Shown here in pieces: positions 17,508 to 45,267 of a DNA stretch of 64,000 bases (positions within the stretch are counted from its first letter, which is position 1; every line of letters starts with the position of its first letter). The translations under genes were made by a program, and so were the position numbers. The DNA comes from an uncultured Dialister sp. (lineage in GTDB: Bacteria > Bacillota > Negativicutes > Veillonellales > Dialisteraceae), in the NCBI GenBank assembly GCA_900543455.1, contig UQRR01000002.1, positions 7,228-71,227 on the forward strand, written 5' to 3'. A model generated the notes under the pieces. It saw only the letters and a program-made list of their open reading frames with translations, had not been told where the DNA came from and made no database searches.

Positions 17508-17911
17508 GGTAAACCCTCACGATATATAAAGGCCGGTACAGAGCTCCCCACGGTCAAAGACCTGTGAGATACAGCGAAAATCCGCGGCGCATCCTAAAGC
17601 GCAGTGATCTTAATAAGCACTACGCCTCATGAAGCGCAGCCCCTGTCTCTGTCCGATGTATTCAAATGAAACGTCTTATTATTATAGCATGTTTACCATG
17701 GAGAATACAGTAGAAAGAGACGGTTTGGAACCACCATAGCCAAGGAAATATACGATGACGAGCCATCGGACTGTAATCAGGGATTTGCTGCTAAAACAAA
17801 GAAAAAGGCATGATAAAAAGCCGGGGCATACCGCCTCGGCTTTCTGACCTCCTCAAAGGTCGATTTCCCCCATGCATTACCCCACCTTCATGGGTGTAAC
17901 TGGACGAATTA

Positions 17912-17989
17912 TATTTTGTCCGATATGATCGGAGAAATTCTGGTGCGTCTAGAGGGATTCGAACTCTCGACACCTGGTTCCGGAGACCT
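17912..17989. repeat. attL: duplicated 3' part of tRNA-Arg (positions ~29-76) plus 29 nt of 3' flank
   Basis: tattttgtccgatatgatcggagaaattctggtgcgtctagagggattcgaactctcgacacctggttccggagacc matches 51914-51990. Confidence 0.8.
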
Positions 17990-18093
17990 TCAAATGAGAA
18001 TGACAAATTATATGAAATTCAGCGAATCAGATAACATCGCATTTCCTGCCGTTCCTATGCTGTCCCATTCTCATTTAGGAGACTTTCGGGCCG

Positions 18094-18120
18094 CCAACTG
18101 CGCCCGACTTTGCGCCCAGC
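18094..18120. promoter_or_regulatory. candidate integrase arm-type sites (TGCGCCC direct repeats) inside attL
   Basis: ccaactgcgcccgactttgcgcccagc here and ccaactgcgcccaaattgtgcgcccactccatgtgcgcccaaatgcgc at 51861-51908 share the 12-mer ccaactgcgccc and TGCGCCC(A) repeats. Confidence 0.4.
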
Positions 18121-18353
18121 TATTCTTTTTCTTTCCCATACAGGCGCTCCATGCCTGCCTTCGTTATCAGCCATGTGCAGCCGGACTTGCGGAACTCCTC
18201 GCCTTCTTTAAAACGAGGCGGAAGCCCCTTTTGTCCTGAGCACGCCTGCTTTACTGTGATCGCAGAAATTCCCCAACGTTCTGCAGCTTCCGCTGTCGTC
18301 ATCACTTCGTCGATGATTTTCATTTTCTGATTCTCCACACTGCGTAACCACAA
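18120..18353 (-). CDS. small helix-turn-helix DNA-binding protein
   Basis: 77 aa. TTAEAAERWGISAITVKQAC looks like an HTH. It sits at the attL end of the prophage. Confidence 0.4.
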   Translation of the reverse strand: MWLRSVENQKMKIIDEVMTTAEAAERWGISAITVKQACSGQKGLPPRFKEGEEFRKSGCTWLITKAGMERLYGKEKE

Positions 18354-18457
18354 AATACTGCCGCCGTAACTGCGCCTTGTATAAATTCCTTACTGATATT
18401 GACGAAGGACAGTGATGTGATCCAAAGTCCCAACGCGATAAAATCATAGAATTTCAT
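18320..18457 (-). CDS. small membrane protein (single TM)
   Basis: MKFYDFIALGLWITSLSFVNISKEFIQGAVTAAVFCGYAVWRIRK. Hypothetical. Confidence 0.25.
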   Translation of the reverse strand: MKFYDFIALGLWITSLSFVNISKEFIQGAVTAAVFCGYAVWRIRK

Positions 18458-18820
18458 TTTACTACCTCCATGTGATATAATGAGGTTGCCAAGAGGACGT
18501 TCGCCCTCTTGCACCTCAGCTCTTTAATCGTCTGAATCATTTGCGGTGATGGTGACGTTTGAAGAGCTCTTTTTGCTTGATGTACTCAACGAGTATTGGA
18601 ACTGCGATGATTAGCATCATTTGGATTAGCCATTTCATATCTTCCTTGTTTATTTTGACCACCTCCCTTCCTTAATTCTGTATTTATTATACACCTTATT
18701 CGACGTAATGTCAAGCAAAGAAAAGCTATTTTCTTCGATTTTATCGCACTTTTCAGCATTTTTACAAAATAAAAAAAGATGTCTTGATTTAGCACTGTGC
18801 CAAATCAAGACATCTTTTTT

Positions 18821-19141
18821 TTATTGCTTCACAGCATCCGCAATCCGCTTCCGCGCCGCTTCGAAATATCCCGGATCCTTCTCAATGCCGATAAAGTTGC
18901 GTCCGAGGTGCTGACAGGCGACGCCGCAGGAGCCGCTCCCCATGCATGAGTCCAGCACTGTCTCTTCTTCATCCGTGTAAGTGCGGATCATGTACTCCAG
19001 TAAGTCAACCGGTTTCTCTGTCGGGTGGATCTTGCCAACGCTATTCCCGCTCGAAAATGTTACAACGTCTCGAGGATATCGCATCCCGTCACGGTTTATG
19101 GTCGGGGTCAGCTTAAAGCGTCCATCTGATCTAAGCAGTCA
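18821..19141 (-). pseudogene. 3' remnant of an N6/N4 DNA methyltransferase gene (C-terminal ~105 codons only)
   Basis: The C-terminal MTase motif ...KIHPTEKPVDLLEYMIRTYTDEEETVLDSCMGSGSCGVACQHLGRNFIGIEKDPGYFEAARKRI is present. The frame is open upstream to 19141 with no start codon and no DPPY-containing N-terminal half. Confidence 0.55.
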
Positions 19142-19169
19142 CCTTGATAAAGATCGATCATGCGCCCAC

Positions 19170-19571
19170 CTACTTTTTACTCAATGCATACAGCAGACCA
19201 CCCGAGATTGCAATCCAGAGGTTACGCTGTTGAGTTTTCGTCTCAATGTCCTTCTTCGCCTCGTCCTCTAATTCTTTCAAGGATTGATTTGCACTCTCTA
19301 ATAATTTCCGCGTCTCGGCGTTCGTTTTCTTCGATTCTGCCAGCTCTGTCTGCGCTGTTTCTAACTGCTTCTGCTGCTCTGTCAAGAGATCCTGCTTGGT
19401 CGCGTTGCTCTTCGTCAGCTCGTCTAAGTTCGTCTCGAACTGTGTCAGTTCGCTTTCCGATATTTGATACATCGTTTCTGCCTGCGAAGTAAAACCACCC
19501 GCAAGCAAGAAGGATAATACAAGCAAATATACAGTATGTTTTGTACTTTTTGTAAAATTCGTAAATCGCAT
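19170..19571 (-). CDS. i-spanin-like lysis protein (N-terminal signal/TM, periplasmic coiled coil, short C-terminal hydrophobic segment)
   Basis: MRFTNFTKSTKHTVYLLVLSFLLAGGFTSQA..., a heptad-rich Q/E/K/L middle, and ...NLWIAISGGLLYALSKK. Lies immediately downstream of the endolysin. Confidence 0.45.
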   Translation of the reverse strand: MRFTNFTKSTKHTVYLLVLSFLLAGGFTSQAETMYQISESELTQFETNLDELTKSNATKQDLLTEQQKQLETAQTELAESKKTNAETRKLLESANQSLKELEDEAKKDIETKTQQRNLWIAISGGLLYALSKK

Positions 19572-19575
19572 ACAT
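19243..19575 (-). CDS. o-spanin-like lipoprotein encoded in an alternative frame, almost fully overlapping the i-spanin-like gene
   Basis: MYAIYEFYKKYKTYCIFACIILLACGW has a lipobox LLAC-G. The RBS GAAGGAGG lies 7 nt upstream of this ATG. Confidence 0.4.
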   Translation of the reverse strand: MYAIYEFYKKYKTYCIFACIILLACGWFYFAGRNDVSNIGKRTDTVRDELRRADEEQRDQAGSLDRAAEAVRNSADRAGRIEENERRDAEIIRECKSILERIRGRGEEGH

Positions 19576-19587
19576 TCCATACCTCCT

Positions 19588-20115
19588 TCATTCCGCCCAC
19601 TGATCTTGATAAAATAACGCTTTGCCACGGATGAAGTCGCCGCCGCTCCCCCATTCTGGGGACTGTGGGAGTGTCCATAAATCCCACCTTTCGCAAGTTG
19701 TGCTCGGTCCATATTCATCCAGCTCGGCGGCTTCAGCATGCGTCATGAAAAGAGACTTCCGAATCGGTAAATGCAAGGTATCAGAAATCACAGCAATGAC
19801 CTGCGCGAGGCACTCAATCTGCGCATCGGTCGGAGGGCAGTCGCCAAAGTCGGCATGACCATCGCCATAAAGCGCTGCGTCTTTGCAACAATCAATAGCA
19901 ATGGCCAGACTTCTATAATTCCGGTGCCAAGTAGCTGCTGGCTGCTCTCTGAAATCTTTAGTACGGTAAATCGTGCCTTCATCATTGATGTTGATGTGAT
20001 AATCGTCTGGATGATAATTATAGCTGCCGGCCGTCCAATGGATGTATACAACGTCAAACGCATCGGCCGCACGTTCAATACAATTTTTCAATTCTTCCAG
20101 TGTAAGAGTATCCAT
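19588..20115 (-). CDS. N-acetylmuramoyl-L-alanine amidase endolysin (amidase_2/PGRP family)
   Basis: 175 aa. ...VVYIHWTAGSYNYHPDDYHININDEGTIYR...MTHAEA is typical of zinc amidase_2. Confidence 0.75.
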   Translation of the reverse strand: MDTLTLEELKNCIERAADAFDVVYIHWTAGSYNYHPDDYHININDEGTIYRTKDFREQPAATWHRNYRSLAIAIDCCKDAALYGDGHADFGDCPPTDAQIECLAQVIAVISDTLHLPIRKSLFMTHAEAAELDEYGPSTTCERWDLWTLPQSPEWGSGGDFIRGKALFYQDQWAE

Positions 20116-20119
20116 TCAT

Positions 20120-20365
20120 CTATTTCCTTTCTGTATAACCGCCCGGAGCGCTGTTGTATTTGCTATTGATCAGCTTATTTACAACCTGCGTAGCCGCACC
20201 ACCACCACCGGTAAAGCTTGCGAATGTATCATAGTTATCCCATTTTTGATGTGTATACACTAAATAAGCAGATACCGCCAGGAACGCCAGCCAGCCGATT
20301 ACCGCAATCACTCGTGTCAGCGACAGCTCATCATTTTCATAAAGCAACATTTTCAAATACTTCAT
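20120..20365 (-). CDS. putative holin / lysis-associated small membrane protein
   Basis: 81 aa with a TM segment VIAVIGWLAFLAVSAYLVY. Lies just upstream of the endolysin. Confidence 0.4.
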   Translation of the reverse strand: MKYLKMLLYENDELSLTRVIAVIGWLAFLAVSAYLVYTHQKWDNYDTFASFTGGGGAATQVVNKLINSKYNSAPGGYTERK

Positions 20366-20379
20366 GTTATCACCTCTTT

Positions 20380-20679
20380 TTATTTTGATGGAAGTTTTCG
20401 GATATCATTCAAAATGGCTGTTCCTTGTCCATTGCCCCCTAGGCCGTGGTAACTGGAGTAAATATGTTCAGCGCTCGCTTTGTCTGCATATGAAAGCCAT
20501 TTTTGCCGCGCTCCGCGTTCATGAATCCGCCGGAGTTCCAATAGCAAAATGGCTTCTACTCCTTTCTCTAATGCTCTATAGTGTTTTGCATTATCTTGGC
20601 TTTTCCGCCAGAAAAAACCAATTAAAAAAGTACCGAGGCCATAAATGGCTTCTGGTACTAATGCTATAATCCAATCCAT
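20380..20679 (-). CDS. putative holin / antiholin-like small membrane protein
   Basis: 99 aa with N-terminal TM IYGLGTFLIGFFW. Lies in the lysis cassette. Confidence 0.35.
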   Translation of the reverse strand: MDWIIALVPEAIYGLGTFLIGFFWRKSQDNAKHYRALEKGVEAILLLELRRIHERGARQKWLSYADKASAEHIYSSYHGLGGNGQGTAILNDIRKLPSK

Positions 20680-20776
20680 ATAATTACATCCCCTGTGTCA
20701 CCTGTATGCAAGTTTTTTTAGACCCGCCGTATTGCCTCGCGTCAGCTGCACCTTGTTTTCTGTAATCTTTAGCATT

Positions 20777-22555
20777 TCATCGTCCCTCCTTGCTCCCGCA
20801 CAAATCCCATATACCTTTTTCCAGGAGGCTTCTGTTCCTGAACTTGACCAGGCTGAAACACTGCAACGCATAACCGTTTCCGGCGGCTGTGATATTTCCT
20901 TTGTCTATTATCACCAGGGAATAGTATGGCCGGCTGAGCATCACCGCATACCGGTCCTTGTCAAGACGGCACGCAATCATCTTCTCCCAGTTATAGAGAA
21001 AGACCGACCACCAGCTTGTGTCGTCAATTGTTACCACCTTTTCCCTGTCGGGCCCGATCAAAGTGAGTGCCTTGACGCCTAATAGCTGCGACTCGTCGTA
21101 AAGGTCAAGCATTACCTTGAACCCATTCCGGATGTCATACTCCTTCGGGAAGGGGTTCCTCACGAGGGTATCCTTCTCAGAGCTTACCGGCTCCATCTTC
21201 GCATCCCTGATTTCATTCCGGATTCTTTTCACGCGGCTGTCCCCTATAACAAGACCGGTATAAGCAATGGAATTAAGCGAGAGTATCACCCAGTTTTCAA
21301 AGCTTGCAATCTCAGCACTCGTTGACGCTCTTCCGGTATAACGCGTAGCGGCAAAGCGGTGGCCGGGAAGCGGATTAAACATGCTCATCTTCGGCTCAGG
21401 CTGCGGACCCAATTTAGCTACGGCACCGCCATAAAACGCACCTGATACGGAATGCGATACACTATAGGAATACTCGCCCTCCGTCCGTCCGATTCCTGTA
21501 ACCCTGCTTAGACTTACAGTGGTTGTGAAGAAATCTTTCACCATTTCCCTCGGCGTTTCTCCGGGATCTATACTTAAAAAAGACTTGTTTGTTTCCGTTT
21601 CAACGACCGGATACGCCAATGCGTAGGCAGAAATATATATATATCCCATGTAGCTCCCATCCGGATATATCTTAAGGTTACTTGCAGCTGCAGACATGCT
21701 TTTTAATACAGGCGCCGGCCTTGGTATTTTCCCAGCCTGGATGCGGTCATTCCTCCCATCCCAGTGAAAAATGAAAGTACGCCCGTCGCCGCGCCCGCCA
21801 TTCATATCATGGATCCTTGACGCACGAAAGAACGCCTCATTTCCTGCCTCCTTCATATACGGATCAAGTTCTATTGTCTGAGTTACCCTCCCGTTCCGCC
21901 GTAAAACCACAGTCCCCTTTGCCGACGAGGAAGGGGATGGCGTTGCTGTGTTTTTCTCACAACACATGCCGGATATTATCTTCACCTCTTTCGGCCCCTC
22001 AGTGCCATAATCGCCTGCCTCTTCAAAGAAAATACCCGCCTTGAATTGATAGGTTTCTGACTCTACGGTTCCTGCGTCGTACCGGGAGCCATTTTCCGAT
22101 TCGATCGTAAGAAGATCGCCATTTTCTGCAATGCAGGCATCCTCCGGCCTGAAATGTCCTAAAAAGCCTCCCGTGATGAGGTTGTACCAGGCGTACCCGT
22201 TTCCATTGCCATTTATACCGCCATAGGCATGTTCTTCATCTCCCACATATGCCAGAATCGGCTTGTCTTTATAAGTGAATGAGACAAAGTCCCCCAGTGT
22301 TCCATCCGCCTCAAGATCCATGACCTTGTAGGTGCCATCCTGGTAAGAGAAAAAGGGGACAGGGAGAACCGGTCCCGAATGCCCTGAGAATACAGGGGGC
22401 GTGTAGCCGGCTTCTCTGTGCCCATAAATCGTAGTGCCGTTCGTCCATACACAGTCCCCCGCCCGCGGATTGATGTCCCCCATCGTAACGAGCCTTCTTC
22501 CTCTGGCATCCCAGAACACTCCGTTCTCCCCTCGGACAATCTGTACACGTTCCAT
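20777..22555 (-). CDS. phage tail fiber / receptor-binding-type protein (unclassified)
   Basis: 592 aa at the distal end of the tail module. No family recognised. Confidence 0.4.
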   Translation of the reverse strand: MERVQIVRGENGVFWDARGRRLVTMGDINPRAGDCVWTNGTTIYGHREAGYTPPVFSGHSGPVLPVPFFSYQDGTYKVMDLEADGTLGDFVSFTYKDKPILAYVGDEEHAYGGINGNGNGYAWYNLITGGFLGHFRPEDACIAENGDLLTIESENGSRYDAGTVESETYQFKAGIFFEEAGDYGTEGPKEVKIISGMCCEKNTATPSPSSSAKGTVVLRRNGRVTQTIELDPYMKEAGNEAFFRASRIHDMNGGRGDGRTFIFHWDGRNDRIQAGKIPRPAPVLKSMSAAASNLKIYPDGSYMGYIYISAYALAYPVVETETNKSFLSIDPGETPREMVKDFFTTTVSLSRVTGIGRTEGEYSYSVSHSVSGAFYGGAVAKLGPQPEPKMSMFNPLPGHRFAATRYTGRASTSAEIASFENWVILSLNSIAYTGLVIGDSRVKRIRNEIRDAKMEPVSSEKDTLVRNPFPKEYDIRNGFKVMLDLYDESQLLGVKALTLIGPDREKVVTIDDTSWWSVFLYNWEKMIACRLDKDRYAVMLSRPYYSLVIIDKGNITAAGNGYALQCFSLVKFRNRSLLEKGIWDLCGSKEGR

Positions 22556-22565
22556 TTAGTCTCTC

Positions 22566-22814
22566 CTAAGCCCCAACAATCACGGCCTGGTTTCCGCATA
22601 GCTCGCACCAGACATACTGCCCGTTGTGGATGTTGATGTCTACGGCGAGCGTATACCGGTATCCCCGCCCGTTCACATACGCATAGTCCCCGGAAACCCG
22701 CGCCCGTAAAATGCCGGTGTCTTCTTTCCGCGCCCTTGCCTTATCTGTTTTCGATTGAAAATTTTTCTGCAGCAAGACTTCACGCAGCCCGGCGAGTCCA
22801 TACATCAGTACCAC
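22566..22814 (-). CDS. small phage protein, hypothetical
   Basis: 82-aa ORF in the tail module. Confidence 0.3.
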   Translation of the reverse strand: MVLMYGLAGLREVLLQKNFQSKTDKARARKEDTGILRARVSGDYAYVNGRGYRYTLAVDINIHNGQYVWCELCGNQAVIVGA

Positions 22815-24493
22815 CTCACAATCTCTATCGTCTGCTTCAATTCCGTAGGAGTCCGTATCACGCGGTTGGATTCCAGATAGTAGTCATGCCCCTCATAGCG
22901 GATCCTGTCCGTAAAGTCTATGAGATGCGGATACTGCCAGATGTCCATGGATATGCGTTCCTCCGTCTTTCTGTTCAGCCATTCGATGTCTTTGGTGAGC
23001 TGCTTCAAGAGCGCATCACCTTTGACAGGAAACTCCGTATCAAAAAGAGCAGCTCCTTCTGACGATACCCCGGAAGGATACTTCCCGCCGAGTCCCAGAT
23101 TTGACTGGTTCATGACATAGCGGTTGGCTCTGCCTCCCGGCTTGCCGTTTCCCACCGATGACCCCTGATAGACATCATCTACGTACACCCGCGTGCCATA
23201 CCATCCGTTTCCTATGTACGAATGGCGGGTTTCCCTTTTCGTCCACGCTATGGCTCCCTCGTCAGAAGCGCTGCTGCCCTTCTTTGGCTTTGCTGAGATT
23301 TCTGTTTCTTTCGCAAGAAATTTCTCCCCCGCCGCAGAGATGGAGTAGTCATAGGTAACCGTAATGGTTTCACCTTCCTTGGTACGAGTCACTTTCTTTC
23401 GAAGATAGTCATCGAAGTCATAGTCATAGGAAACTGTTTCGCCATTGTTTGACTCATAGACCAGAAGGCCGTATCGGTAGCTGCATGACGATCCGCTGAA
23501 ACTGATCGTTCCTGTAAACCCAAGGGGCTCTACAGTGATACTGCCTCCACGGGCGGTATGGCTACCTTTCCCCGACCAGACCGACCGCACGAGCTTCCTG
23601 TCAATGTCAGGCCTGCTGTGCTTCGTTCCCGTGATGTCTATCGTCCTTACCTCGTGCCCTCTCTGGATGATGCAGAGTGTATCGTTCCGTAAGAACACAT
23701 TGATCCACCTCTGCGGCAGGTTTCCCATCCATCCAAAGAGGCTACCGGCAAGATTCTGTATGGTAGCCCCGATTCCTTCATAGGTGGATTCCGGAGTGAA
23801 ATCGTCAATAGCAATAACCAGCTTCTTTTTCAAAATAGAAGCGATCTTCTCCGCATGGTCTTTGGCTGTCGCATTGGCTGTATGCAGCTGGTAATTGAAC
23901 GGCGTATAGAGGAGCTTATCCACGTCATACATCCCGGTGATGGTGCGCATAAGCCCGGTTCCGCCTGTTTCGTATACAAGAAAACGGTAAGGAAAATCCA
24001 ACAGTTTTCCTTCTATGACTGATTCAAGGGGAAGATCATAAGGCGTCACCATTTGGAAGGTATCGGACAATGTCCCACGTACCAGGCTGATGGAAATCTC
24101 CGATGGATTCAAACCTTTGGCGCTATAGGGAAGCCGCCGGACAGTATCACTGTCTGCCCGCTGTCGGCTTTTCACGAACATCTCCGTATCCGCCTGGTTC
24201 TCAAGCTGGTACACCAGGCGTCTTTTGGTATCCGCGTTCAAAAAGATGTGGTTTTGGGCCCGCCGGACAGTATCCGAATGGACATACGTCATCCCTATCG
24301 TGCCCACAATCTTTCTTGCCGTATCGGCATTCTGCTTTACCCATCCGGCGGCATTCCTGTCGGTATCGGCGTTGAGGGAAACCCTGATCCCAGGCTTATA
24401 GGTCACAAAGACTTCAAGGGGCGGGTCATGCCTCGATGTATCCGGCGGCTGATGCGTAACATACACATCAAGCGGCGATTTGGTGGCACTCAT
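22805..24493 (-). CDS. phage tail/baseplate structural protein (unclassified)
   Basis: 562 aa with NADT-containing repeats. Lies in the tail module. Confidence 0.4.
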   Translation of the reverse strand: MSATKSPLDVYVTHQPPDTSRHDPPLEVFVTYKPGIRVSLNADTDRNAAGWVKQNADTARKIVGTIGMTYVHSDTVRRAQNHIFLNADTKRRLVYQLENQADTEMFVKSRQRADSDTVRRLPYSAKGLNPSEISISLVRGTLSDTFQMVTPYDLPLESVIEGKLLDFPYRFLVYETGGTGLMRTITGMYDVDKLLYTPFNYQLHTANATAKDHAEKIASILKKKLVIAIDDFTPESTYEGIGATIQNLAGSLFGWMGNLPQRWINVFLRNDTLCIIQRGHEVRTIDITGTKHSRPDIDRKLVRSVWSGKGSHTARGGSITVEPLGFTGTISFSGSSCSYRYGLLVYESNNGETVSYDYDFDDYLRKKVTRTKEGETITVTYDYSISAAGEKFLAKETEISAKPKKGSSASDEGAIAWTKRETRHSYIGNGWYGTRVYVDDVYQGSSVGNGKPGGRANRYVMNQSNLGLGGKYPSGVSSEGAALFDTEFPVKGDALLKQLTKDIEWLNRKTEERISMDIWQYPHLIDFTDRIRYEGHDYYLESNRVIRTPTELKQTIEIVRWY

Positions 24494-24497
24494 AGGA

Positions 24498-25382
24498 TCA
24501 CACTTTCGCTGATTTCAAACTGAAGCTCGCAGCCTTCACTTCATCCAGAGTCATATCCTTGATGTACGACATGCCGTAGACCATGCTGGCCCCAGAGATT
24601 TTCTGCGTGCTGCTGTACACATCCTTCTTACCGTCATTCACGGTGCCTGTCAGCGCGTTGACCTTGTCCGAGTTGAAATGGATATCCCTTGCAGAAAGTG
24701 TGACGCCAGTGATGCAGATGCTTTCACTTCTGGCCAGGATTTTCTTTTCCAGGTCATCCGTATCAATTTTCTGCGTCAGCACCTGATTGACATCGGAGGC
24801 CTCTGCCTGCGCCGCCCCGATGCCCTTCCACGTACCCTCCGGTTCTGTCAGCCTGGCTGTCACAACTTCTTCATGGCTGATGTCATAGTCGGCAATAATC
24901 ACATTGAAGAAATAGTTCTTCCCGCTTTCTGTTTTCAGCCATACTCCATTAAACGGCTTTCCATCATAGCAGTTGCCCTGGCGGACAGCCACCTTGTCCC
25001 CGTTCATCCAGACCTCGATGATGCCGTCATTAACGCCGGATCGCACATGCATGATGAAATCAATCGATGCCCTGTCTGCATACTTGGTGGTAAAATCTTT
25101 TTCATTCCCGCTGAAAAAGACCTTGATGTAATCGCTTTTATCCAGGCGTACCCCCGTCGGCCATCCCGTCCCCGTCACTGAAATGATCCCGGAAACATAC
25201 GCCCTCTCCATAGAGAGCTTAATCCACACGTTGGTAAGGGGCTCCGGAAAGGTGACCGATCGGTCATCGCTGTTATTGAAAAATGCCACCCCGTTTACCG
25301 CATTGATTTTTGTATCGTTTACAGTTGTACCGGCACGGTCCAGTAATTCTCCGTAGCCGGGATTCACATACTTGTAAGCCAT
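24498..25382 (-). CDS. phage tail protein, hypothetical
   Basis: 294-aa ORF in the tail module. Confidence 0.35.
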   Translation of the reverse strand: MAYKYVNPGYGELLDRAGTTVNDTKINAVNGVAFFNNSDDRSVTFPEPLTNVWIKLSMERAYVSGIISVTGTGWPTGVRLDKSDYIKVFFSGNEKDFTTKYADRASIDFIMHVRSGVNDGIIEVWMNGDKVAVRQGNCYDGKPFNGVWLKTESGKNYFFNVIIADYDISHEEVVTARLTEPEGTWKGIGAAQAEASDVNQVLTQKIDTDDLEKKILARSESICITGVTLSARDIHFNSDKVNALTGTVNDGKKDVYSSTQKISGASMVYGMSYIKDMTLDEVKAASFSLKSAKV

Positions 25383-25394
25383 ATCTTTTCCCCC

Positions 25395-26171
25395 TTAGAC
25401 CGCCTGCACCACGACTTCCGTATGGATGACCGTGCTGCTGTCCCTTTCAGGCGCTTCTTCCGAAGACGAGCTGACCTTGATCCAGAAGATGACATTCTTA
25501 TCCCGTATGATATCCGTAATGCTGATCTGGCTCCCCCAGACGCCCTGCTGAGCCATCTGCTCAGGAACCGCGGCAAAGCTCGAGCGCGAATCCGTCTGCG
25601 AGCAGGAAAGAGTGGCAGTCTTGGCATCAGATCCGCTGCCGGGGCCTGTGATATTTTTGATGTAAGGCGTATGGCCGCCTCCCGGGTAAATTTCAGTGAT
25701 GGTAATCAACGCACCGGATACAGTTGTCGTAAACTGCTCTGATCTTGCCTTGATGGCCGCCGCGATATTGCCGGCCGTCGCTTCAATACTGCTCCCGACA
25801 GAAAAATCCGTCCCTGCCGTCAGCGCTACGTCGCCTACGGTGATCGTATCCCCCGGCGAGGCATTGGCCGTGACCTTGATGACAACCTGCCCGGAAATCG
25901 ATAGATCCTTCGCCACCTGCCAGCGCCCTACATTGCCGCCAGTCGGCGTATAATTTGTCCCATCATAGTGATAGGGCTGGATAAACGAGGTACCGCTGCT
26001 CTCATAGCCTTTCTCGCACCGGATGGCGCACTTGATGACCTTCGATTCATTCTTCGTCGCATCCAGCGTCACGGAAATAGGCGCCGTCATGAGACCGTTT
26101 TCCGAAACTACAGTCCCGTCCTGAAGCCCTGACGTCGGGCTATCCGTATAAATGTGATAATAGTTTGCCAT
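25395..26171 (-). CDS. phage minor tail protein, hypothetical
   Basis: 258-aa ORF downstream of the tape measure gene. Confidence 0.35.
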   Translation of the reverse strand: MANYYHIYTDSPTSGLQDGTVVSENGLMTAPISVTLDATKNESKVIKCAIRCEKGYESSGTSFIQPYHYDGTNYTPTGGNVGRWQVAKDLSISGQVVIKVTANASPGDTITVGDVALTAGTDFSVGSSIEATAGNIAAAIKARSEQFTTTVSGALITITEIYPGGGHTPYIKNITGPGSGSDAKTATLSCSQTDSRSSFAAVPEQMAQQGVWGSQISITDIIRDKNVIFWIKVSSSSEEAPERDSSTVIHTEVVVQAV

Positions 26172-26183
26172 GCTGCATTCTCC

Positions 26184-26528
26184 TTATGCTCCCCAGAACT
26201 CAAGCTCCAGCCTGTGATAGCTTTCGTGATATTCGATGTAGCTGTCCTTTTTGATGACGACCCTCATGTTCTCCCAGGTATTCCCCGCATGATCAATGAC
26301 GGTGACTTTTGTTCTCTGCACCCAGTAGTTGTACACTTTTTCATAGTCTCTGTATGCCAGGATGACCGTGCAGCTGATCACATCCCCGGTATCCACATGC
26401 CCGTAGTCTTCCACGACCACGCCGTCTATCGTCTGGTGCTTTTCCTGCCGGTCGTCCGGCGTAATGCTCCAGTCCTCCGGCCGCCGGAAAGCCGCTGCAT
26501 CCCCGATCCTAAGTTTCAGTGCCATCAT
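26184..26528 (-). CDS. phage minor tail protein (gpM-like position)
   Basis: 114-aa ORF immediately after the tape measure gene. Overlaps it by 4 nt. Confidence 0.35.
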   Translation of the reverse strand: MMALKLRIGDAAAFRRPEDWSITPDDRQEKHQTIDGVVVEDYGHVDTGDVISCTVILAYRDYEKVYNYWVQRTKVTVIDHAGNTWENMRVVIKKDSYIEYHESYHRLELEFWGA

Positions 26529-28852
26529 GCACCTCCGTAAGCAAGCTGCGATCTTCTCGCAGCATCGGCGTATACAACCTTGATCCGGTCAGCCACATTG
26601 TCCGCCATCTTCTTCATCCCGCTCTCATCCATGTAGGTACCGCCCTGGATGGTAACATTGGCAGTAAATCCCGGAATGTCACGGTTAAGTTCGCTCCCGC
26701 GGTAAACAGGAATGGTGTTCTCCCCCAGGCGCTTTGCCCAGAGGTCGGTTTCAAGCCCCGGCACCAGATTGTTCTTGACGCTGTTCATAAGCTCGGCAAA
26801 CCGGGAGACTTCTTCCGGGCTTGTCATGTCATTCTGGATGCCGTACTTTTTACGCATCGCCATAAGGACTGCCATTTTCGCATTGTTCATCCTGGTCTGC
26901 GTATCGCCCTCCCCCGCCATGGCCTGTCTCATGATTTCAAGGTACTGGCGGTTCTCCTTCAGCATGGAAAGAGCCTCCTGCTGCCTTGCCTTCGTTTTCT
27001 CGCGTTCTGCCCAGCGGGTGGCCGTGACTTCATCCACCCCTTTCTGGATCCATGCTTTCTTCTCGCGGTCTATATCATCCAGACGGTTCTGCAGTTCAGA
27101 CTTCCACGATTTGTTAATCTGGGAAAGCGCCCCTTCATTGAAGTCCCTCATGACCTTGGCTTTGGCCGCTTCCGTGTATCTTACGATGTCGGCTTCCTTA
27201 GCTCCTTCGGATTTCAGCTTCTCCGCTTTGAGGTCAATATCATGAAGCTGGTTCTCAAGGTCGCTGTGCGTCAGCTTGTAGATTTCATTCGTGAGGCCTG
27301 CCCCGCCGCCGGACGCTGCCTTCTTCGCCTTCGCCATGGCGTCTTCTACCTTGCGGCGGGTTTCCTCAGCGGACTGGGACGCATCGCTTTTCTTTGCTTC
27401 CTGCTCTTTAGGCTTTTCTGCATCCTTTGGCATGTAGTCAGCCATCGCCCAATTCCAGAGCCTGCTGATGCCGTCTGCAAGAGCTGTATCTCCCAGTGTC
27501 TCTTTCATATCCGCCAGGGTTTCCCGGCAGTCCTTGATCGCAGCTTTGACGAAATTCGCAACGGCTCCGGCATTCTTCATGTTGATGCCAAGACCATCAA
27601 AGGCTTCGCCTGCGAGCTTGCAGGCATCTACCGCAACACCCCCGATGCTTCCGATGGTCTTTACCACAGACTCTATATCCGACTTGTTGTCCTTGATACC
27701 CTTCACGAGTGTTTCAATGGCTTCATTGATGTCCGGCATGAGATCGGATACAACAGGCATGAAGGCTGCCCCGATAGCCCCCGAGAGCTGTCCCATGGAG
27801 ACTTTCATCTCGTTCCATTCCATATTCATTCTGTGCGCTTCATCCGGGTTGAGAAGCCCAGTGGTAGGTATTTTGGCTGCGCGTTCCTGGAGCTCTGCCA
27901 TGTCTTTCAGGACAGGCACAAGCTCGGCGCCGCGGGCGCCCAGAAGCTGCGAAACGAACTCACTTTCAAGTCCGGCCGCTGCGGCATTCCTGTAGCCTTT
28001 GGCAAGGGCAGTCAGCTGCTGATTGACCGGGAGCAGGTTTCCGGCAGAATCCTTCATCACGACACCAAAGGCAGACAGAAGCCGCGTTGTATCATTGCCG
28101 TCTTCCCCTGCACTCTGGATAGCCTTGTCCAGACGGATGATGGCAGGAACGGCAGCCCTTGCATCCGCTCCTGCCAGTTTGAAGACCATGTTCATTCTGG
28201 CGGCTTCTGCATTCGTGGTATGCATCCTCTGCGCAAGACCATAAATGTTGTTTCCGGCGGTCATGGCACTCTTGGCCATGGCGATAAGCCCTGCACTGAC
28301 CGCTGTCGTGACGCCGACCGCTTTTCCGATGGGGCCGGACATGAAGCCAAGAAGGCCAAGATCGCCCGCCCCCTGTGCCAGGACCGACATGGCGCCTGCA
28401 CCATTGGCAACGCTGTTTACCATACGGCCGGCAATCGAAGTCTGCGCGGAACGTTCCTTTCTTACCGCGCGCAGCTGTACCTCCAGGTTGGCATAGGCCT
28501 TCCTTTCATTGAGAAGCCGCGTTTCGAGGCGGGCACTCGCTGCGCTGTCGGCGCCTTTTGCCTGTACCATCTCCCGGTAAGCCGCCGCAACCAGCCTGAT
28601 TTTCTGCCGCTGGAGGTCAAGCTGGCGGATAAGCGCCTGCTCCCTTGTATCTATGGAGCGGGCTTTATCCTTGGCTCCGTCCAGCTTGGAAAGGTCGATG
28701 TCCGCCTCAATGCGGATCTTTTTGTTCTCATGGTTGATCCGGCTGATCGCCTGGTCTACCGTCTTTCCTGCCAGGGCAAAGTCGCTTGAAAGGGACGACA
28801 GGTCAAGCCCCAGCTTGGTATAGAGCGCTGCCACAGTTTCTCCCTTTGCCAC
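26525..28852 (-). CDS. phage tail tape measure protein
   Basis: 775 aa with coiled-coil Ala/Gln/Lys-rich repeats and glycine-rich segments. Lies downstream of the chaperone pair. Confidence 0.8.
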   Translation of the reverse strand: MAKGETVAALYTKLGLDLSSLSSDFALAGKTVDQAISRINHENKKIRIEADIDLSKLDGAKDKARSIDTREQALIRQLDLQRQKIRLVAAAYREMVQAKGADSAASARLETRLLNERKAYANLEVQLRAVRKERSAQTSIAGRMVNSVANGAGAMSVLAQGAGDLGLLGFMSGPIGKAVGVTTAVSAGLIAMAKSAMTAGNNIYGLAQRMHTTNAEAARMNMVFKLAGADARAAVPAIIRLDKAIQSAGEDGNDTTRLLSAFGVVMKDSAGNLLPVNQQLTALAKGYRNAAAAGLESEFVSQLLGARGAELVPVLKDMAELQERAAKIPTTGLLNPDEAHRMNMEWNEMKVSMGQLSGAIGAAFMPVVSDLMPDINEAIETLVKGIKDNKSDIESVVKTIGSIGGVAVDACKLAGEAFDGLGINMKNAGAVANFVKAAIKDCRETLADMKETLGDTALADGISRLWNWAMADYMPKDAEKPKEQEAKKSDASQSAEETRRKVEDAMAKAKKAASGGGAGLTNEIYKLTHSDLENQLHDIDLKAEKLKSEGAKEADIVRYTEAAKAKVMRDFNEGALSQINKSWKSELQNRLDDIDREKKAWIQKGVDEVTATRWAEREKTKARQQEALSMLKENRQYLEIMRQAMAGEGDTQTRMNNAKMAVLMAMRKKYGIQNDMTSPEEVSRFAELMNSVKNNLVPGLETDLWAKRLGENTIPVYRGSELNRDIPGFTANVTIQGGTYMDESGMKKMADNVADRIKVVYADAARRSQLAYGGA

Positions 28853-28868
28853 AGTCTCTCCCCCTTAC

Positions 28869-29117
28869 CTAGAAAAAGCCCGCCTGGTCAATCGGTGTCA
28901 GGCGGGGCGAATTTTCAATCTTTTCTTTGATAACAATGAGGCTCAAAGCATAAAGCAGGTCCGTGTCCATCAGCTCGCTTTCCGTCCAGTGGTAGCGGGC
29001 ATGAAGAAACTCCAGCCATCCCAATACGGCTTCCATCGGGGCAAGCGTCAGTCCGCCTGCCCCGCTTCCCCGTTTGGGATTTCTGCCATCTTCTGGTTTA
29101 CGAGAGAAACGATCCAT
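28869..29117 (-). CDS. gpT-like extension: -1 frame segment of the gpGT-like frameshift fusion, joined to 29048-29356 by a -1 programmed frameshift
   Basis: This ORF is in the -1 frame relative to the upstream chaperone. This is the canonical arrangement before a tape measure gene. Confidence 0.55.
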   Translation of the reverse strand: MDRFSRKPEDGRNPKRGSGAGGLTLAPMEAVLGWLEFLHARYHWTESELMDTDLLYALSLIVIKEKIENSPRLTPIDQAGFF

Positions 29118-29356
29118 TGAAAAATTTCCTGGTACAGCGGACGGATGCGGGTAATCGGAAGCTCATCCTCGATGACCTTGGCCGTCACTGGCGCATCAAA
29201 AACGCTCGCAATGAGCTCGGCCATCCTATCCAGGAACTCCTCCGCCGGAATCTCCCCTGTGCCTGTTTCAAAGGCCATGAAATCACGCCATGCCCTGACT
29301 TTAGGTATCTTCGCTTTGTATGTCTTCCCGCCGATCACAATCGTTGGTCTGTTCAT
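29048..29356 (-). CDS. tail assembly chaperone (gpG-like)
   Basis: 102 aa. Overlaps the next ORF by 70 nt and contains the slippery heptamer C CCA AAC at 29078-29072. Confidence 0.6.
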   Translation of the reverse strand: MNRPTIVIGGKTYKAKIPKVRAWRDFMAFETGTGEIPAEEFLDRMAELIASVFDAPVTAKVIEDELPITRIRPLYQEIFQWIVSLVNQKMAEIPNGEAGQAD

Positions 29357-29373
29357 CTATGTATCCTCCCTTA

Positions 29374-29943
29374 TCAGGTTTCTGTTGCTTCCACGCTCTC
29401 ATACCATTTGGTACCCGTGGTATTCTCGAATCCCTCTGCATCTTCATCGGCGACGCGCTTCCAAGCATTGTCATATTCTCTTACAACAAAGTGGCCGACG
29501 AGCTTTGGTGTATTCCAGTGGACGGAGCTGTCCTTCCCCTGGAAATTATCCTCGGGCTCGGCAAACTTCCCCTTGAGAAGTTTTACATAGCGCTTCTTCG
29601 TATTGGACTTCACCGATTCGAAGAGGATTGCCACATACGGTGCTTCATCCGTCGACTTGTACTCCATCACGCCCTTTTCCACGGTGTGTCCCAGAAGCGC
29701 TCCCAGGTCCTTTACGGAAACCTGCGCCGTTTCAATAGTGACCTCGATATCCCCGAGATAAGAAGCAATGTCAAAAGGGGCATCATCCCCGTAAAGGGTA
29801 TTCACCCCGGACGACGGCTTCACGTCGATTGTCTTGACACCTGCAATGCTGACAGGCGTTTCATAGGTCACTCCTGTGCTGTCATCAGTCTTTAGTACGG
29901 CATAGTGCAGGTTTCGCACGCCGATCAGTACTCCCTTGCTCAT
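29374..29943 (-). CDS. phage major tail protein (phi13/TP901-1-like)
   Basis: MSKGVLIGVRNLHYAVLKTDDSTGVTYETPVSIAGVKTIDVKPS... matches the phage major tail protein family. Confidence 0.65.
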   Translation of the reverse strand: MSKGVLIGVRNLHYAVLKTDDSTGVTYETPVSIAGVKTIDVKPSSGVNTLYGDDAPFDIASYLGDIEVTIETAQVSVKDLGALLGHTVEKGVMEYKSTDEAPYVAILFESVKSNTKKRYVKLLKGKFAEPEDNFQGKDSSVHWNTPKLVGHFVVREYDNAWKRVADEDAEGFENTTGTKWYESVEATET

Positions 29944-30310
29944 CTGTTTTTTCCTCACTTTCTGCAATAACAAACCGGAGCGCCGATACACGGATCTTCC
30001 CGTCCATCATCCGCTCTGTACTAATCCTCGTCCATCCGAGGTTCTCCATAATTTCACGCACCCGCTGGATAACCGGCATGTCCGATCCATCCTCGGATAG
30101 CACAGAGAGCTGCACAGTGACACGCCTTGCCAGCTCCTGGTCATCCCCAAAGAGATGGGGCACATCGGAAATCACCTGGAAGCAGAGAACGGGATAGCGC
30201 CCTGAGTAGGACGTCATGTCCTGCCGGATGCTTTTCTCTCCCTCTGCCAGAAGCGACGTCAGCTCTGTGTCGGCTCTCAGTGTAAAGAACACTTGTTCAA
30301 TTAGATCCAT
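29885..30310 (-). CDS. phage tail completion / neck protein, hypothetical
   Basis: 141-aa ORF between the gp10-like gene and the major tail gene. Confidence 0.35.
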   Translation of the reverse strand: MDLIEQVFFTLRADTELTSLLAEGEKSIRQDMTSYSGRYPVLCFQVISDVPHLFGDDQELARRVTVQLSVLSEDGSDMPVIQRVREIMENLGWTRISTERMMDGKIRVSALRFVIAESEEKTDEQGSTDRRAKPALCRTKD

Positions 30311-30680
30311 TTTTGATTCCTTTCGATATCGCCTTTCTCAAGGCTGCCTTGAGTGCTTCGCGATAGCTTTCCCGGTGTGCATCCATGGCCGGATAGAAAA
30401 ATGGCTTGTTGATCCTCGGGGAGAACTCAACAAACCGTCCGTATTTCACACCGTTCTTTGGATTTGGCGCATCCGCCAAAATTTCGATTGCCGTCTTATT
30501 CTTGTTCCACCGCCAATGGATAGAATCCCGAAGGCGCCCCGTCCTTACAGGCACCCTCGACTTCATATCCTGGACGATTCTGTCCGCTTCGATTTCCATC
30601 TGCCGCCGGAGCGTCTCTACCACTTCCGTGCCATACATTTCTTCCAAAGCAGCAAAGTTGATATATCTCCCTTTTGGCAT
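30297..30680 (-). CDS. HK97 gp10-family phage protein
   Basis: 127 aa with the motif ...VPVRTGRLRDSIHW. Confidence 0.65.
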   Translation of the reverse strand: MPKGRYINFAALEEMYGTEVVETLRRQMEIEADRIVQDMKSRVPVRTGRLRDSIHWRWNKNKTAIEILADAPNPKNGVKYGRFVEFSPRINKPFFYPAMDAHRESYREALKAALRKAISKGIKNGSN

Positions 30681-30688
30681 ACATCACC

Positions 30689-31060
30689 TCAAAGATTGGT
30701 GTCTTCAGTCACGCACTCCATGTAGGTCAGCTTGTGCCTTCCACAGGCATCGACGGGCGTCCCCATGCACTTAAAGACAGAGCCGTTCACTTTGAAGCGG
30801 CTCGCCGGGCTAAGATCCCGCCGATAGCGCACCACTATAAGCACTTTCCTTATGATGTGCGACTCGGCTGTGGTTTCATACATCTCCGATGCATGATTCT
30901 CGACATACGCCCAGACTGTGCTGCCTTCCTTGTAGGTGATACGCTCATTACCGTAGGAGTCGATATCACCGGAAGGAATCAGGATCGTGACGCGCTGGCG
31001 AAGATTGCCGGCCGTGACTGCCTGCAAGATCCGTTCTTCTGTCGTCATTTCATGCGCCAC
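30689..31060 (-). CDS. phage head-tail adaptor (head closure) protein
   Basis: 123 aa, positioned between the capsid gene and the gp10-like gene. Confidence 0.5.
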   Translation of the reverse strand: MAHEMTTEERILQAVTAGNLRQRVTILIPSGDIDSYGNERITYKEGSTVWAYVENHASEMYETTAESHIIRKVLIVVRYRRDLSPASRFKVNGSVFKCMGTPVDACGRHKLTYMECVTEDTNL

Positions 31061-31230
31061 CTTTCCAATAAGAAAGCTGTGTGATCATGGACCTAACTGG
31101 ATAGCTGTAATTCATTTCCACCTCTGCGAAGCTGCCACTCTTTACCCCGCCAAGCTCATCTCGCTCCGGGGCCATAGGCTTCAAGAGCGTGACTTTATGT
31201 GTGAACCGTCCCGGATTTCTCTTGAACACT

Positions 31231-32349
31231 TTAAGCGCCCTGCTTGATGACAGTGAAGGCGGCGGTATAGGTGTTGATGTCGGTGAATCTGCAGATAGCA
31301 CGGACAAGTACGGAGTTGTTGCGGAAGCCTGCAGATTCATCTGCCGCTACTTCCAGTTCCGGGTAAGCGATATGGTACATCGCGCGGAAATCGCCAACCA
31401 ATACCGTGTTGTCACCCAGTTCATCATTTTCCACAACGATGACCGGACGACCTTCGAGCTGGCGGATGGTGCTGCCGTTCGCGTCTCTGGTGAGCAGGTA
31501 GCGGTCTTCTTTGTCAGAGACTACGGCCATAGCAGCGAAGGTCTTCTGATTCATGACGATGGTCGCATTAGCTCCCGCATCCAGCGGCAGGGAAATAACC
31601 GCAGCCTTAATCGCATCCAGTCCTTCTTTGGACGCTACCGCGGTAACAGTTTTAGCGGTGGCGTCAACAGCTGCCTTTGCGGCGGAAAGGATTTCTTTAT
31701 TAACAGCCTTCACATAAACGCGATTAAACAGTTTCCCGATCACCGTCATGACATCGGTCTTTGCGTCCATCAACAGTTCGCGGGACACAGGAATGATAGC
31801 GCCCTTAGATGCCAGGTTGAACTTGGTGGAGGTGAATACGGCCTTCGTCTCCGCGATCGCGTTGTTTTCGTCGAAATCGGTCAACGTTACAGTCTGAGAG
31901 TAGTCGATGATCGGAACGGAGCCGGAACGGGTACCCACAGAGATAGCAGTGGTCAGGGAGCGAAGGTCGTTATTGATACCGTTATTTTCCTTCAGGTCGA
32001 GGAGTTCAGATGGGATCAGCACGCCGCCGTCTGCGTCTACGGCCCCGTTCTGACCAGTAGCTGTATTGAAAAATTTCGCGGTATCTTCATTCTTAATACC
32101 GAGAAGGTAAGACTTCAGTGCTGCATTAAAAGATTTCTTGTCCATGTTGTTTTCTCCTTTGTTTTTGGAATTCTTCGCGGCCGCTTCTGCTTCGAGCTGC
32201 TTTTCATAATCAGACAGTGCGTCCTGCAGCTTATTCTGCATTTCAACCGGCACAGCCTCTTTCTGATCGATCAGTGCCTGGATCTTTTCCCTCAGAGACT
32301 TGATCTCTGCTTTCATTTCAAGACTTTTTAACATTCGATGTTCCTCCAT
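31231..32349 (-). CDS. HK97-family major capsid protein with N-terminal coiled-coil delta/scaffold region
   Basis: 372 aa. N-terminal KAEIKSLREKIQALIDQKEAV coiled coil, then an HK97-fold capsid body. Confidence 0.8.
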   Translation of the reverse strand: MEEHRMLKSLEMKAEIKSLREKIQALIDQKEAVPVEMQNKLQDALSDYEKQLEAEAAAKNSKNKGENNMDKKSFNAALKSYLLGIKNEDTAKFFNTATGQNGAVDADGGVLIPSELLDLKENNGINNDLRSLTTAISVGTRSGSVPIIDYSQTVTLTDFDENNAIAETKAVFTSTKFNLASKGAIIPVSRELLMDAKTDVMTVIGKLFNRVYVKAVNKEILSAAKAAVDATAKTVTAVASKEGLDAIKAAVISLPLDAGANATIVMNQKTFAAMAVVSDKEDRYLLTRDANGSTIRQLEGRPVIVVENDELGDNTVLVGDFRAMYHIAYPELEVAADESAGFRNNSVLVRAICRFTDINTYTAAFTVIKQGA

Positions 32350-32577
32350 CTAAAATAGCGAGCCAGTACGCCTCGGTCTCTTCGTCCAAATGGTCGGGCG
32401 GCTTCGCGCGTTGCGCCATATTCCTATGAGCAGTGAGCTGTTTATAGCTCGGCGCCTTATTGCCGTAGGCCGCTCGGTAAGCAGGCTTTCGCCCAGTTCC
32501 TTTTCCAGATTGAAATACTTTTGACGGTAAATCGTACCTTGTACTCTTTCCCACCAATCTTCATCTTTTCATCAGCT

Positions 32578-33816: not shown

Positions 33817-33820
33817 GACA

Positions 33821-34447: not shown

Positions 34448-34740
34448 TCCTCTTTCCTGTACATTTGAAGCTGCGTCAGCATCGCTCGCGCCGTGTAATC
34501 CATCGTTACCACGCCGGTAACCATACCCTCGCGCCGATCATACACACTCGGCATCCACTGGGTCAGTACCCACATATCGCATTTAGCGGAAAACACGGAA
34601 TCTTTGGCATAGATTTCATCAAAGTCATCCACCGCATCACGGATATAGGAATAGCCCTGACTAATGGCACTCGCGATATATCCGTCATCTTCTTTGTAAG
34701 GGATACGCAGGTAGTCTTTTGTCTGGTTTATACTAAGCAT
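34444..34740 (-). CDS. gp6-like head-tail connector protein
   Basis: 98 aa. LSINQTKDYLRIPYKEDDGYIASAI... is the pattern of the gp6-like connector family. Confidence 0.5.
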   Translation of the reverse strand: MLSINQTKDYLRIPYKEDDGYIASAISQGYSYIRDAVDDFDEIYAKDSVFSAKCDMWVLTQWMPSVYDRREGMVTGVVTMDYTARAMLTQLQMYRKEE

Positions 34741-39426: not shown

Positions 39427-39461
39427 GCTTAGCCCCTCCTTGTTAATAATACCCGGTTGCA

Positions 39462-43028: not shown

Positions 43029-43034
43029 AGCCGT

Positions 43035-45252: not shown

Positions 45253-45267
45253 TTCTTCTCTCCTTCA

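Follow-up and report, generated by a model that had tools for sequence, protein, structure and literature searches.

A dual-coded gene pair at the end of a Dialister prophage lysis cassette: a candidate lipoprotein-free analogue of two-component spanins

Introduction

Two-component spanins are encoded in embedded, overlapped or separated gene architectures, and in the known overlapping arrangements a short proline-rich lipoprotein gene lies inside or across the 3' half of the gene for the inner-membrane subunit, the i-spanin (Kongari et al. 2018, PMC6139136). Known spanins require a lipoprotein signal, and periplasmic cysteines that form intermolecular disulfides have been called universal in two-component spanins (PMC6139136). 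In the Negativicutes, no LolA or LolB has been found (PMC5007114). Given this finding and the lipopolysaccharide-containing outer membrane of the class, a canonical lipoprotein spanin should not work there. Here we report on two overlapping open reading frames (ORFs), frame A and frame C, located on the minus strand, as are all genes of the lysis region, in a stretch of 64,000 nucleotides (nt) from an uncultured Dialister sp. (assembly GCA_900543455.1, contig UQRR01000002.1, positions 7,228 to 71,227; hereafter the window). An initial annotation had interpreted frame A as an i-spanin and frame C as a lipoprotein o-spanin. On re-reading the sequence, we found its coordinates and its description of the two overlapping ORFs to be correct, and the location in a prophage lysis cassette was borne out.

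The pair resembles lambda Rz/Rz1 and other two-component spanins in that it constitutes the last genes of a lysis cassette, occurs in a diderm host, and specifies two envelope proteins from overlapping frames. Frame C is built like Rz, with a predicted N-terminal transmembrane domain (TMD) and a predicted periplasmic coiled coil, and the exported partner occupies the +1 frame relative to it. Different from Rz/Rz1, the pair has no conserved lipobox, no proline-rich o-spanin and no conserved periplasmic cysteine. Its partner A is a predicted coiled coil of 100 amino acids (aa) with a signal-peptidase-I-type signal and a C-terminal anchor, and its host belongs to a clade in which LolA and LolB were not found. 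The layout also differs. The two frames start together and overlap by about 100 codons. Rz1, by contrast, begins at 0.4-0.5 of the length of Rz, as do the o-spanin genes of about 70% of embedded pairs (PMC6139136); the initial annotation was thus right to call the co-start arrangement unlike known embedded spanins. Because the defining lipoprotein feature is absent, we do not count the pair as a member of the spanin family, but it may work like a spanin.

Results

Two frames are open from a common ribosome-binding site

The ATG codons of frame C and frame A are 4 nt apart, and a single Shine-Dalgarno (SD) site serves both (Table 1). As noted initially, its spacing of 6 nt suits the start of frame C well. 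Relative to A, frame C is in the -1 frame, which places A in the +1 frame relative to C. Gene callers place the start of frame A at 19571.

To define the extent of both frames among relatives, we collected 165 homologous loci, which yielded 124 unique gene sequences. Frame C was open for approximately 96-123 codons and started within a few nucleotides of the frame A start in 123 of these, whereas the third frame (+1) reached only 23-79 codons and contained 7-15 stops. Homologous phages therefore do not keep just one of the two frames open, an outcome that the initial annotation had considered as evidence against its reading. Each frame had its own start codon beside the common SD site in 122 of the 124 sequences, and SD-like motifs were present 4-11 nt 5' of the paired starts in nearly all homologues. 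The start layout was "ATGTG" in 71 sequences (A starting at ATG, C at GTG at +2), "ATGnATG" in 34 (C starting at ATG at -4, as in the window) and "TTGTG" in 13. The frame C stop falls 61-79 nt before that of frame A in the homologues, just upstream of the part of A that encodes its predicted anchor. The only exception to the openness of frame C is L048 (L048:2495-2881), in which a CGA>TGA change truncates frame C at codon 46 without altering the protein of frame A. Coverage of this contig is only 1.8x, and the change is either a sequencing error or a natural frame-specific knockout.

Both frames are under purifying selection

Codon shuffling indicated that the openness of frame C is not accidental. 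For a constant frame A protein, 5-10 stops would be expected in frame C, and none was observed; the probability of an open frame C was at most 0.0005 with codons drawn at prophage usage and 0.0005-0.033 with shuffling restricted to the synonymous codons of the gene itself. In the reverse shuffle, in which the frame C protein was kept constant, the probability that frame A would be open by chance was 0.15-0.45 in many close lineages. This result is weak among close relatives, and frame A thus needed separate evidence. In the 24-codon tail of frame A past the frame C stop, diversity was 0.28, 0.22 and 0.55 at codon positions 1, 2 and 3, respectively, which is the classic pattern of single-frame coding. 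The corresponding values in the overlap were 0.22, 0.21 and 0.31, so that wobble diversity is suppressed there in comparison to the 0.55 of the A-only tail.

We then classed substitutions along 112 edges of a minimum spanning tree and normalised them by mutational opportunity. Within the overlap, the rate was 0.258 for changes synonymous in both A and C, 0.059 for changes synonymous in A only, 0.038 for changes synonymous in C only, and 0.012 for changes non-synonymous in both. Synonymy in C increased the rate 4.4-fold (p = 3e-14) and 3.1-fold (p = 1e-27), and synonymy in A increased it 4.9-fold and 6.9-fold. The control with the +1 frame was flat (0.58 and 0.75). Codon shuffles, substitution classes and wobble suppression together show purifying selection on both frames as proteins, and not on the third; synonymous constraint, which the initial annotation had proposed to examine in both frames, is visible in A as well as in C. 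Insertions and deletions occurred as blocks of 7 residues (21 nt), which keep both frames and the heptad register. Codon adaptation of both frames (0.63 and 0.62) was lower than in normal prophage genes (0.69-0.81) and gave no sign of which frame is ancestral.

Could a single coding frame explain these data, the other one being open as a consequence of coiled-coil codon composition or of a non-coding constraint? The openness of A expected by chance in many close lineages, given the C protein, would be in agreement with this, as would the fact that gene callers annotate just one of the frames. However, the 5-10 stops expected in frame C are missing, both from the approximately 124 sequences and from the distant lineages (six or more), and frame C has a frame-specific synonymous excess of its own. 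For frame A, there is codon-position selection in the tail, a 4.9-6.9-fold synonymous excess in the overlap, and conservation of signal and tail motifs. A constraint on RNA structure, moreover, would not favour frame-specific synonymous changes. We consider a single coding frame very improbable. Programmed ribosomal frameshifting that joins the frames into fusion products appears even less probable: apart from the overlap of the frames over their whole length, nothing specific points to it, although no search was aimed at slippery sites, and each frame has both its own start beside the common SD site (in 122 of 124) and its own N-terminal targeting segment. We conclude with high confidence that about 100 shared codons are dual-coded in two frames.

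Frame A is rich in Cys, Trp, Phe and TTR-encoded Leu, both in the signal peptide and in the coiled-coil core (19173..19571). From an unquantified reading of the codons, these residues appear to be imposed by frame C, whose hydrophobic residues require T at the second codon position, and the bias thus appears to be a visible trade-off of dual coding. Lysis functions encoded out of frame within another gene are familiar from phiX174 D/E and MS2 L, where the embedded start lies well inside an unrelated gene. The pair described here differs in that its similarly built partners share the start site, the heptad phase and nearly the whole length.

Frame C is predicted to encode an Rz-like stalk protein

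Protein features were counted over 115 unique pairs. The frame C product has a basic N terminus (KKYK), a predicted TMD at aa 13-32 (19480..19539), and then an Arg/Glu/Ala/Asp-rich heptad helix that ends in ...RECKSILERIRGRGEEGH. The hydrophobic stretch comprises 20-23 uncharged residues across the pairs, and the soluble domain is essentially proline-free (0.13% Pro) with a hydrophobic periodicity of 3.5 residues. AlphaFold2 (AF2) modelled residues 2-108 as a single helix (pLDDT 76).

The initial annotation had described the N terminus of frame C as a textbook lipoprotein signal (...CIILLAC|G). The motif is present, but with Leu at position -2 it fits only a relaxed lipobox, and not the strict [LVI][ASTVI][GAS]C. 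A strict lipobox was found in 25 of 115 relatives (22%), and several have no suitably placed Cys at all; what they have in common is the TMD of 20-23 residues. Since the lipobox is relaxed and not conserved, we read frame C as i-spanin-type, and the assignment as a lipoprotein o-spanin did not hold. In the soluble part, Cys occurred in 47 of 115 frame C sequences and in none of the 115 frame A sequences, and distant C-type members have a semi-conserved E-C-Q motif.

The commonest matches in the PHROG database were to "Rz-like spanin" families (phrog_214, phrog_89 and phrog_739), which are weak and prone to coiled-coil bias. They comprised 28 of 44 members for frame C (best E 1.3e-6) and 19 of 44 for frame A (best E 4.9e-5). 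Pfam searches with 44 members per frame at E<=0.01 retrieved no spanin family and coiled-coil noise only, with ATP-synt_B as the commonest match for C. From these sequence features, frame C is predicted to be an Rz-like stalk protein with an N-terminal TMD (i-spanin-type, type II).

Frame A is predicted to encode an exported coiled-coil protein

All three segments that had been ascribed to frame A initially, namely a signal-like N terminus, a heptad-periodic helical domain and a hydrophobic C-terminal segment, are present. A predicted signal peptide (aa 1-31, 19479..19571) with the cleavage site SQA|E is followed by a Glu/Leu/Gln/Lys-rich heptad coiled coil (aa 32-113, 19233..19478), and a tail with 14 uncharged residues (aa 118-131, 19179..19220) ends in KK. 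A (S/V/A/T)(Q/R)A|E site of the signal-peptidase-I type is present in 110 of the 115 frame A sequences, a K-T-(R/Q)-Q-R-N-L-W motif is near-invariant, and the tail consists of 14-15 uncharged residues ending in KK or RR across the pairs. In the AF2 model, residues 5-132 form a single helix (pLDDT 80). None of the 115 sequences contains a strict lipobox. Weak matches were to phrog_937, annotated as "hemolysin" (only 2 of 44 members), and a few members matched a holin PHROG. Frame A is thus predicted to be an exported coiled-coil protein with a short C-terminal anchor, and its export signal would place the coiled coil outside the cytoplasm. The initial assignment of A as an i-spanin is at odds with the cleavable signal peptide, the short C-terminal anchor and the lack of an N-terminal anchor.

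The unimolecular spanin gp11 of phage T1 is of similar length, about 130 aa. Frame A is like gp11 in its N-terminal export signal and C-terminal hydrophobic anchor. However, the signal of gp11 is that of an outer-membrane lipoprotein, which contrasts with the missing strict lipobox and the tail of only 14-15 uncharged residues in frame A, and frame A always occurs with an overlapping partner.

A canonical two-component spanin, with A as i-spanin and C as a Lol-sorted lipoprotein o-spanin, can be evaluated on this basis. In its favour are the LLAC|G after a basic and hydrophobic N terminus in the window's frame C, the strict lipobox in 22% of relatives, and the diderm host. This contrasts with a lipobox that is not conserved, with relatives that lack the Cys, with a mature C product that would be a proline-free helix of 75 aa (0.13% Pro) unlike the proline-rich Rz1, with a cleavable signal instead of an N-terminal anchor in A, and with Negativicutes in which LolA and LolB were not found. 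We regard a canonical spanin at this locus as highly improbable.

One lineage of distant relatives, L197-L202 (AT-rich; L197-L201 at about 2505..2980, L202:6001-6474), has a different A-type tail. About 40 residues forming four short strands of alternating hydrophobicity, with a terminal aromatic-x-Phe, replace the hydrophobic helix. This beta-type tail is conserved at 57% identity and had no Pfam match, to YadA_anchor or otherwise. Judging from its sequence, it may serve as a beta anchor in the outer membrane, for example of the trimeric-autotransporter type, or as a hairpin that binds the wall.

The dual-coded pair is widespread

The pair belongs to a large family of modules from gut phages. 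Frame A has about 1,460 database relatives, most of those listed being 133 aa long. For frame C, gene-finder calls exist in 188 clusters, and a profile search of 1.84 billion representatives retrieved 314 clusters (at 50% identity). Distant C-type proteins are built alike: the TMD is followed by a "DVSD(N/I)G..AD..R.EL" motif, the helical middle is variable, and the end reads "(C/S)Q.I..(V/I)R.RG". DNA was available for L181-L202, which represent six or more distant lineages with a GC content of 32-52%, and in those checked frame C was about 26% identical. Every distant lineage checked had an A-type ORF in the +1 frame of the C-type gene and a closed third frame; the A-type start lay within a few to about 16 nt of the C start, and A ran 64-139 nt beyond the C stop. 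A 188-aa database protein (P0297) has a frame-C-type N terminus (TMD and DVSN motif) fused to a GH25-like C-terminal part; it has either arisen by recombination or is an artefact of assembly or gene calling.

When 50,697 deposited phage genomes were searched by tblastn, neither the A-type protein of the window nor three distant A-type proteins had a match, although low-complexity filtering may have masked weak ones. Searches of the literature on spanins in phages of Negativicutes, Veillonella or Dialister retrieved nothing relevant except one prophage-genomics preprint that does not mention spanins. We thus found no description of the dual-coded pair in deposited phage genomes or the searchable literature.

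A possible role in outer-membrane disruption

In about 84 of 118 loci, the gene that immediately precedes the pair encodes a small enzyme with a single domain. According to Pfam, these enzymes are GH25 (192 aa), Amidase_2 (175-198 aa), Amidase_3 (174-181 aa) or glucosaminidase (148-153 aa) proteins, and every endolysin identified by Pfam next to the pair has a single domain and a length of 148-198 aa; a few other small proteins upstream of the pair had no Pfam match. Single-domain endolysins are typical of phages of diderm hosts. In the window, the SD site of the pair overlaps the endolysin stop codon, which points to late co-expression and not to lysogenic expression. The host flanks of the prophage are 95-98% identical at the DNA level to Dialister sp. 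i34-0019-2H8 (contig BAABYQ010000001), in which a gene for a TonB-dependent receptor lies about 7 kb from ribH. Dialister is in the Veillonellaceae, class Negativicutes, and therefore a diderm Firmicute, in line with the outer membrane that the initial annotation had presumed for the host. Between positions 17600 and 23000 of the window, we found no ORF with a lipobox other than the relaxed match of frame C, and no o-spanin-type lipoprotein.

A spanin-like role can be proposed from the cassette-end position with translational coupling to the endolysin, the diderm host, the topology of C, the lack of a canonical spanin, the absence of LolA and LolB, and the lipoprotein requirement of known spanins. 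Ribosomes loading on the one SD site would start either at the frame C codon or at the frame A codon a few nucleotides away. C would form an inner-membrane stalk and A an exported coiled-coil partner that binds it. After removal of the peptidoglycan by the endolysin, the A-C complex would act on the outer membrane, and the pair would thus be the last-step, envelope-disrupting lysis factor, functionally analogous to a two-component spanin without the lipoprotein. That neither product is predicted to be a lipoprotein fits the reported absence of LolA and LolB in Negativicutes. Taken as a whole, a dual-coded, lipoprotein-free spanin analogue at the end of a late lysis operon is our best explanation of the data, and we see an even chance of its being correct; for the outer-membrane function of the pair by itself, predicted from sequence, we see an even chance at best. 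There is precedent for a phage without a lipoprotein spanin using another outer-membrane protein in the phiKT gp28 "disruptin", which mediates spanin-independent outer-membrane disruption (bioRxiv 10.1101/515445) but is a single cationic amphipathic peptide and not a membrane-anchored coiled-coil pair.

Several observations weigh against an action of the pair on the outer membrane. The Rz-like PHROG matches are weak and biased by coiled-coil composition, and the Pfam matches are generic only (for example ATP-synt_B). No outer-membrane targeting signal was recognised in A or C, and standard topology rules make A a type I inner-membrane protein, which would place both subunits in the inner membrane. 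A helix of 80 residues is approximately 12 nm long by our estimate and may not bridge the periplasm. For the beta-type tail of L197-L202, the sole PDB profile match was to a choline-binding repeat (weak, E 0.09). In about 25 loci, tail-fibre genes lie between the endolysin and the pair, which still closes the same late region. The module is also present in lineage L011, which comes from a metagenome-assembled genome (MAG) labelled Fusicatenibacter, a genus taken to be monoderm. Lastly, the charge complementarity of an A-C pair was approximately 0 in the parallel in-register arrangement and 0.29 in the best antiparallel one, compared with 0.02 for A-A and 0.11 for C-C, which is weak evidence.

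Both proteins may therefore be real without disrupting the outer membrane, for example as holin partners or timers acting in the cytoplasmic membrane or the wall, or in superinfection exclusion or envelope modification encoded at the end of the prophage. We judge such a role somewhat improbable, but it is a serious contender. It would agree with the placement of both anchors in the inner membrane, the detachment from the endolysin in about 25 loci, the Fusicatenibacter-labelled MAG, the weak resemblance of the beta-tail variant to a wall-binding repeat and the weak frame A matches to phrog_937 "hemolysin" and, in a few cases, to a holin PHROG, as well as with the Firmicute descent of Negativicutes prophages (10.1101/606087). 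By contrast, holin candidates are already present upstream, the overlap of the SD site with the endolysin stop indicates late co-expression, and the adjoining endolysins identified by Pfam are all single-domain, as expected for phages of diderm hosts.

For a holin-related role, the pair can be compared with XhlA (PBSX) and BhlA (SPbeta), small coiled-coil proteins with one terminal TMD from Bacillus prophage lysis cassettes. The TMD is N-terminal in BhlA-like proteins, as in frame C, and C-terminal in XhlA-like proteins, as in frame A. However, XhlA has no signal peptide, and the export signal of A would put its coiled coil outside the cytoplasm, unlike that of a tail-anchored XhlA-type protein. 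The xhlA and bhlA genes are separate rather than dual-coded and belong to monoderm hosts, and neither XhlA nor BhlA was among the Pfam matches listed at E<=0.01 for the 44 members of each frame.

In the spanin-like reading, two geometries of the A-C complex can be envisaged. The heptad a/d positions of both frames fall on the same DNA positions in 43 of 43 representatives, and the e/g positions are mainly Glu in A and mainly Arg in C. The acidic flanks of A, the basic flanks of C and the common heptad phase would favour an association of A with C. By e/g charge score, a parallel in-register heterodimer was unsupported, and an antiparallel one was only weakly favoured. In an antiparallel geometry, which topology rules and the charge score favour, both anchors would lie in the inner membrane, with the mature N terminus of A and the C terminus of C forming a conserved tip that points outward. 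In a parallel geometry, the tail of A would be distal and located either within the outer membrane or next to it; the shortness of the tail (14-15 residues), the shared heptad phase and the tail of L197-L202 speak for this arrangement.

The prophage and its surroundings

The prophage comprises approximately 34 kb (about 17,605..51,909) and is inserted beside tRNA-Arg(CCG) (51943..52018), between alr and mreB. Contigs L024 and L027 contain the empty integration site. Dialister sp. i34-0019-2H8 has a related prophage (L008) at this site that also includes the gene pair, and 14 of the fetched loci adjoin the same Dialister flank, with frame A identities from 56% to 100%. The features of the pair and of the lysis cassette are summarised in Table 1.

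Table 1. Coordinates of the overlapping gene pair and of neighbouring prophage genes in the window
Feature	Coordinates	Strand	Basis or remarks
SD site GAAGGAGG	19582..19589	-	Read from sequence; common to both frames; overlaps endolysin stop TGA (19590..19588)
Frame C gene, 110 aa and stop	19243..19575	-	ATG at 19575, 6 nt past SD; stop 19245..19243
Frame A gene, 133 aa and stop	19170..19571	-	ATG at 19571, 10 nt past SD; stop 19172..19170
Dual-coding stretch, ~109 codons, translated in both frames	19246..19571	-	Wobble diversity, substitution classes
Frame-A-only tail	19173..19242	-	Frame C stop 73 nt ahead of frame A stop
Upstream ATG in frame A (MEC-MRF...)	19578..19580	-	1 nt from SD; probably unused
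Endolysin, single-domain N-acetylmuramoyl-L-alanine amidase, 175 aa, no wall-binding domain	19588..20115	-	Pfam Amidase_2 2.5e-8, phrog_5867 3e-27
Membrane protein, 81 aa, holin candidate	20120..20365	-	One clear TMD, weak phrog_1322 match, cassette position
99-aa protein with N-terminal TMD, second holin or holin-accessory candidate	20380..20679	-	phrog_4105 (function unknown)
Integrase	50707..51795		Prophage end next to tRNA-Arg(CCG)

Directly downstream of the pair is a DNA methyltransferase remnant (18821..19161, minus strand). Comparison with L015, in which the N6_N4_Mtase gene is intact (239 aa), shows a deletion of about 380 nt; what is left is an N-terminal ORF of 17 aa and a C-terminal fragment of 87 aa. 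Other relatives are truncated differently. The terminal 1.1 kb of the prophage (17623..18739, including an HTH_59 gene at 18120..18353) is 96.8% identical in an unrelated prophage, L025, and is also common to L008, and may be a common att-proximal module or remnant. The cassette of L025, a different prophage at the same Dialister site, lies at L025:1286-2950 and encodes a Phage_holin_4_1 protein, a 200-aa GH25 endolysin and then a 190-aa protein. This last protein has an N-terminal TMD, a beta-looking C terminus ending in ...YTVKEW, no Pfam match and no overlapping partner ORF, and may solve the same problem in another way, also without a lipoprotein. Next to the integrase is an Abi_2 gene (49440..50363), and outside the prophage, 56642..63980 encodes a PBECR4 nuclease, a Sel1-repeat protein and a 1027-aa HerA/DUF87-like ATPase. 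Together, these two regions could be a defence island.

Discussion

We report here a phage gene pair in which nearly the entire length of one gene is read in two frames from a single ribosome-binding site. To our awareness, it is among the longest and best-conserved cases of same-strand dual coding in phage. Unusually, its products are similarly built and have the start site and the heptad phase in common, and the pair thus provides a clean system for studying the co-evolution of two structured proteins on one DNA. Automated annotation picks one frame per locus, as reflected by about 1,460 frame A compared with 188 frame C database entries, and half of the module is consequently missing, systematically, from gut-virome catalogues.

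It is tempting to generalise from this locus, tentatively and with a likelihood that we place below even. Phages of diderm Firmicutes without Lol may breach the outer membrane with a lipoprotein-free, dual-coded two-component spanin made from one ribosome-binding site, in which subunit ratio, length and heptad register would be locked at the DNA level, and in some lineages the exported subunit would have undergone a swap to a beta-type anchor. Phage exit from Negativicutes has so far been undescribed. The module identified here is a concrete and testable candidate for it, and a related prophage with the same pair is carried by a sequenced isolate, Dialister sp. i34-0019-2H8.

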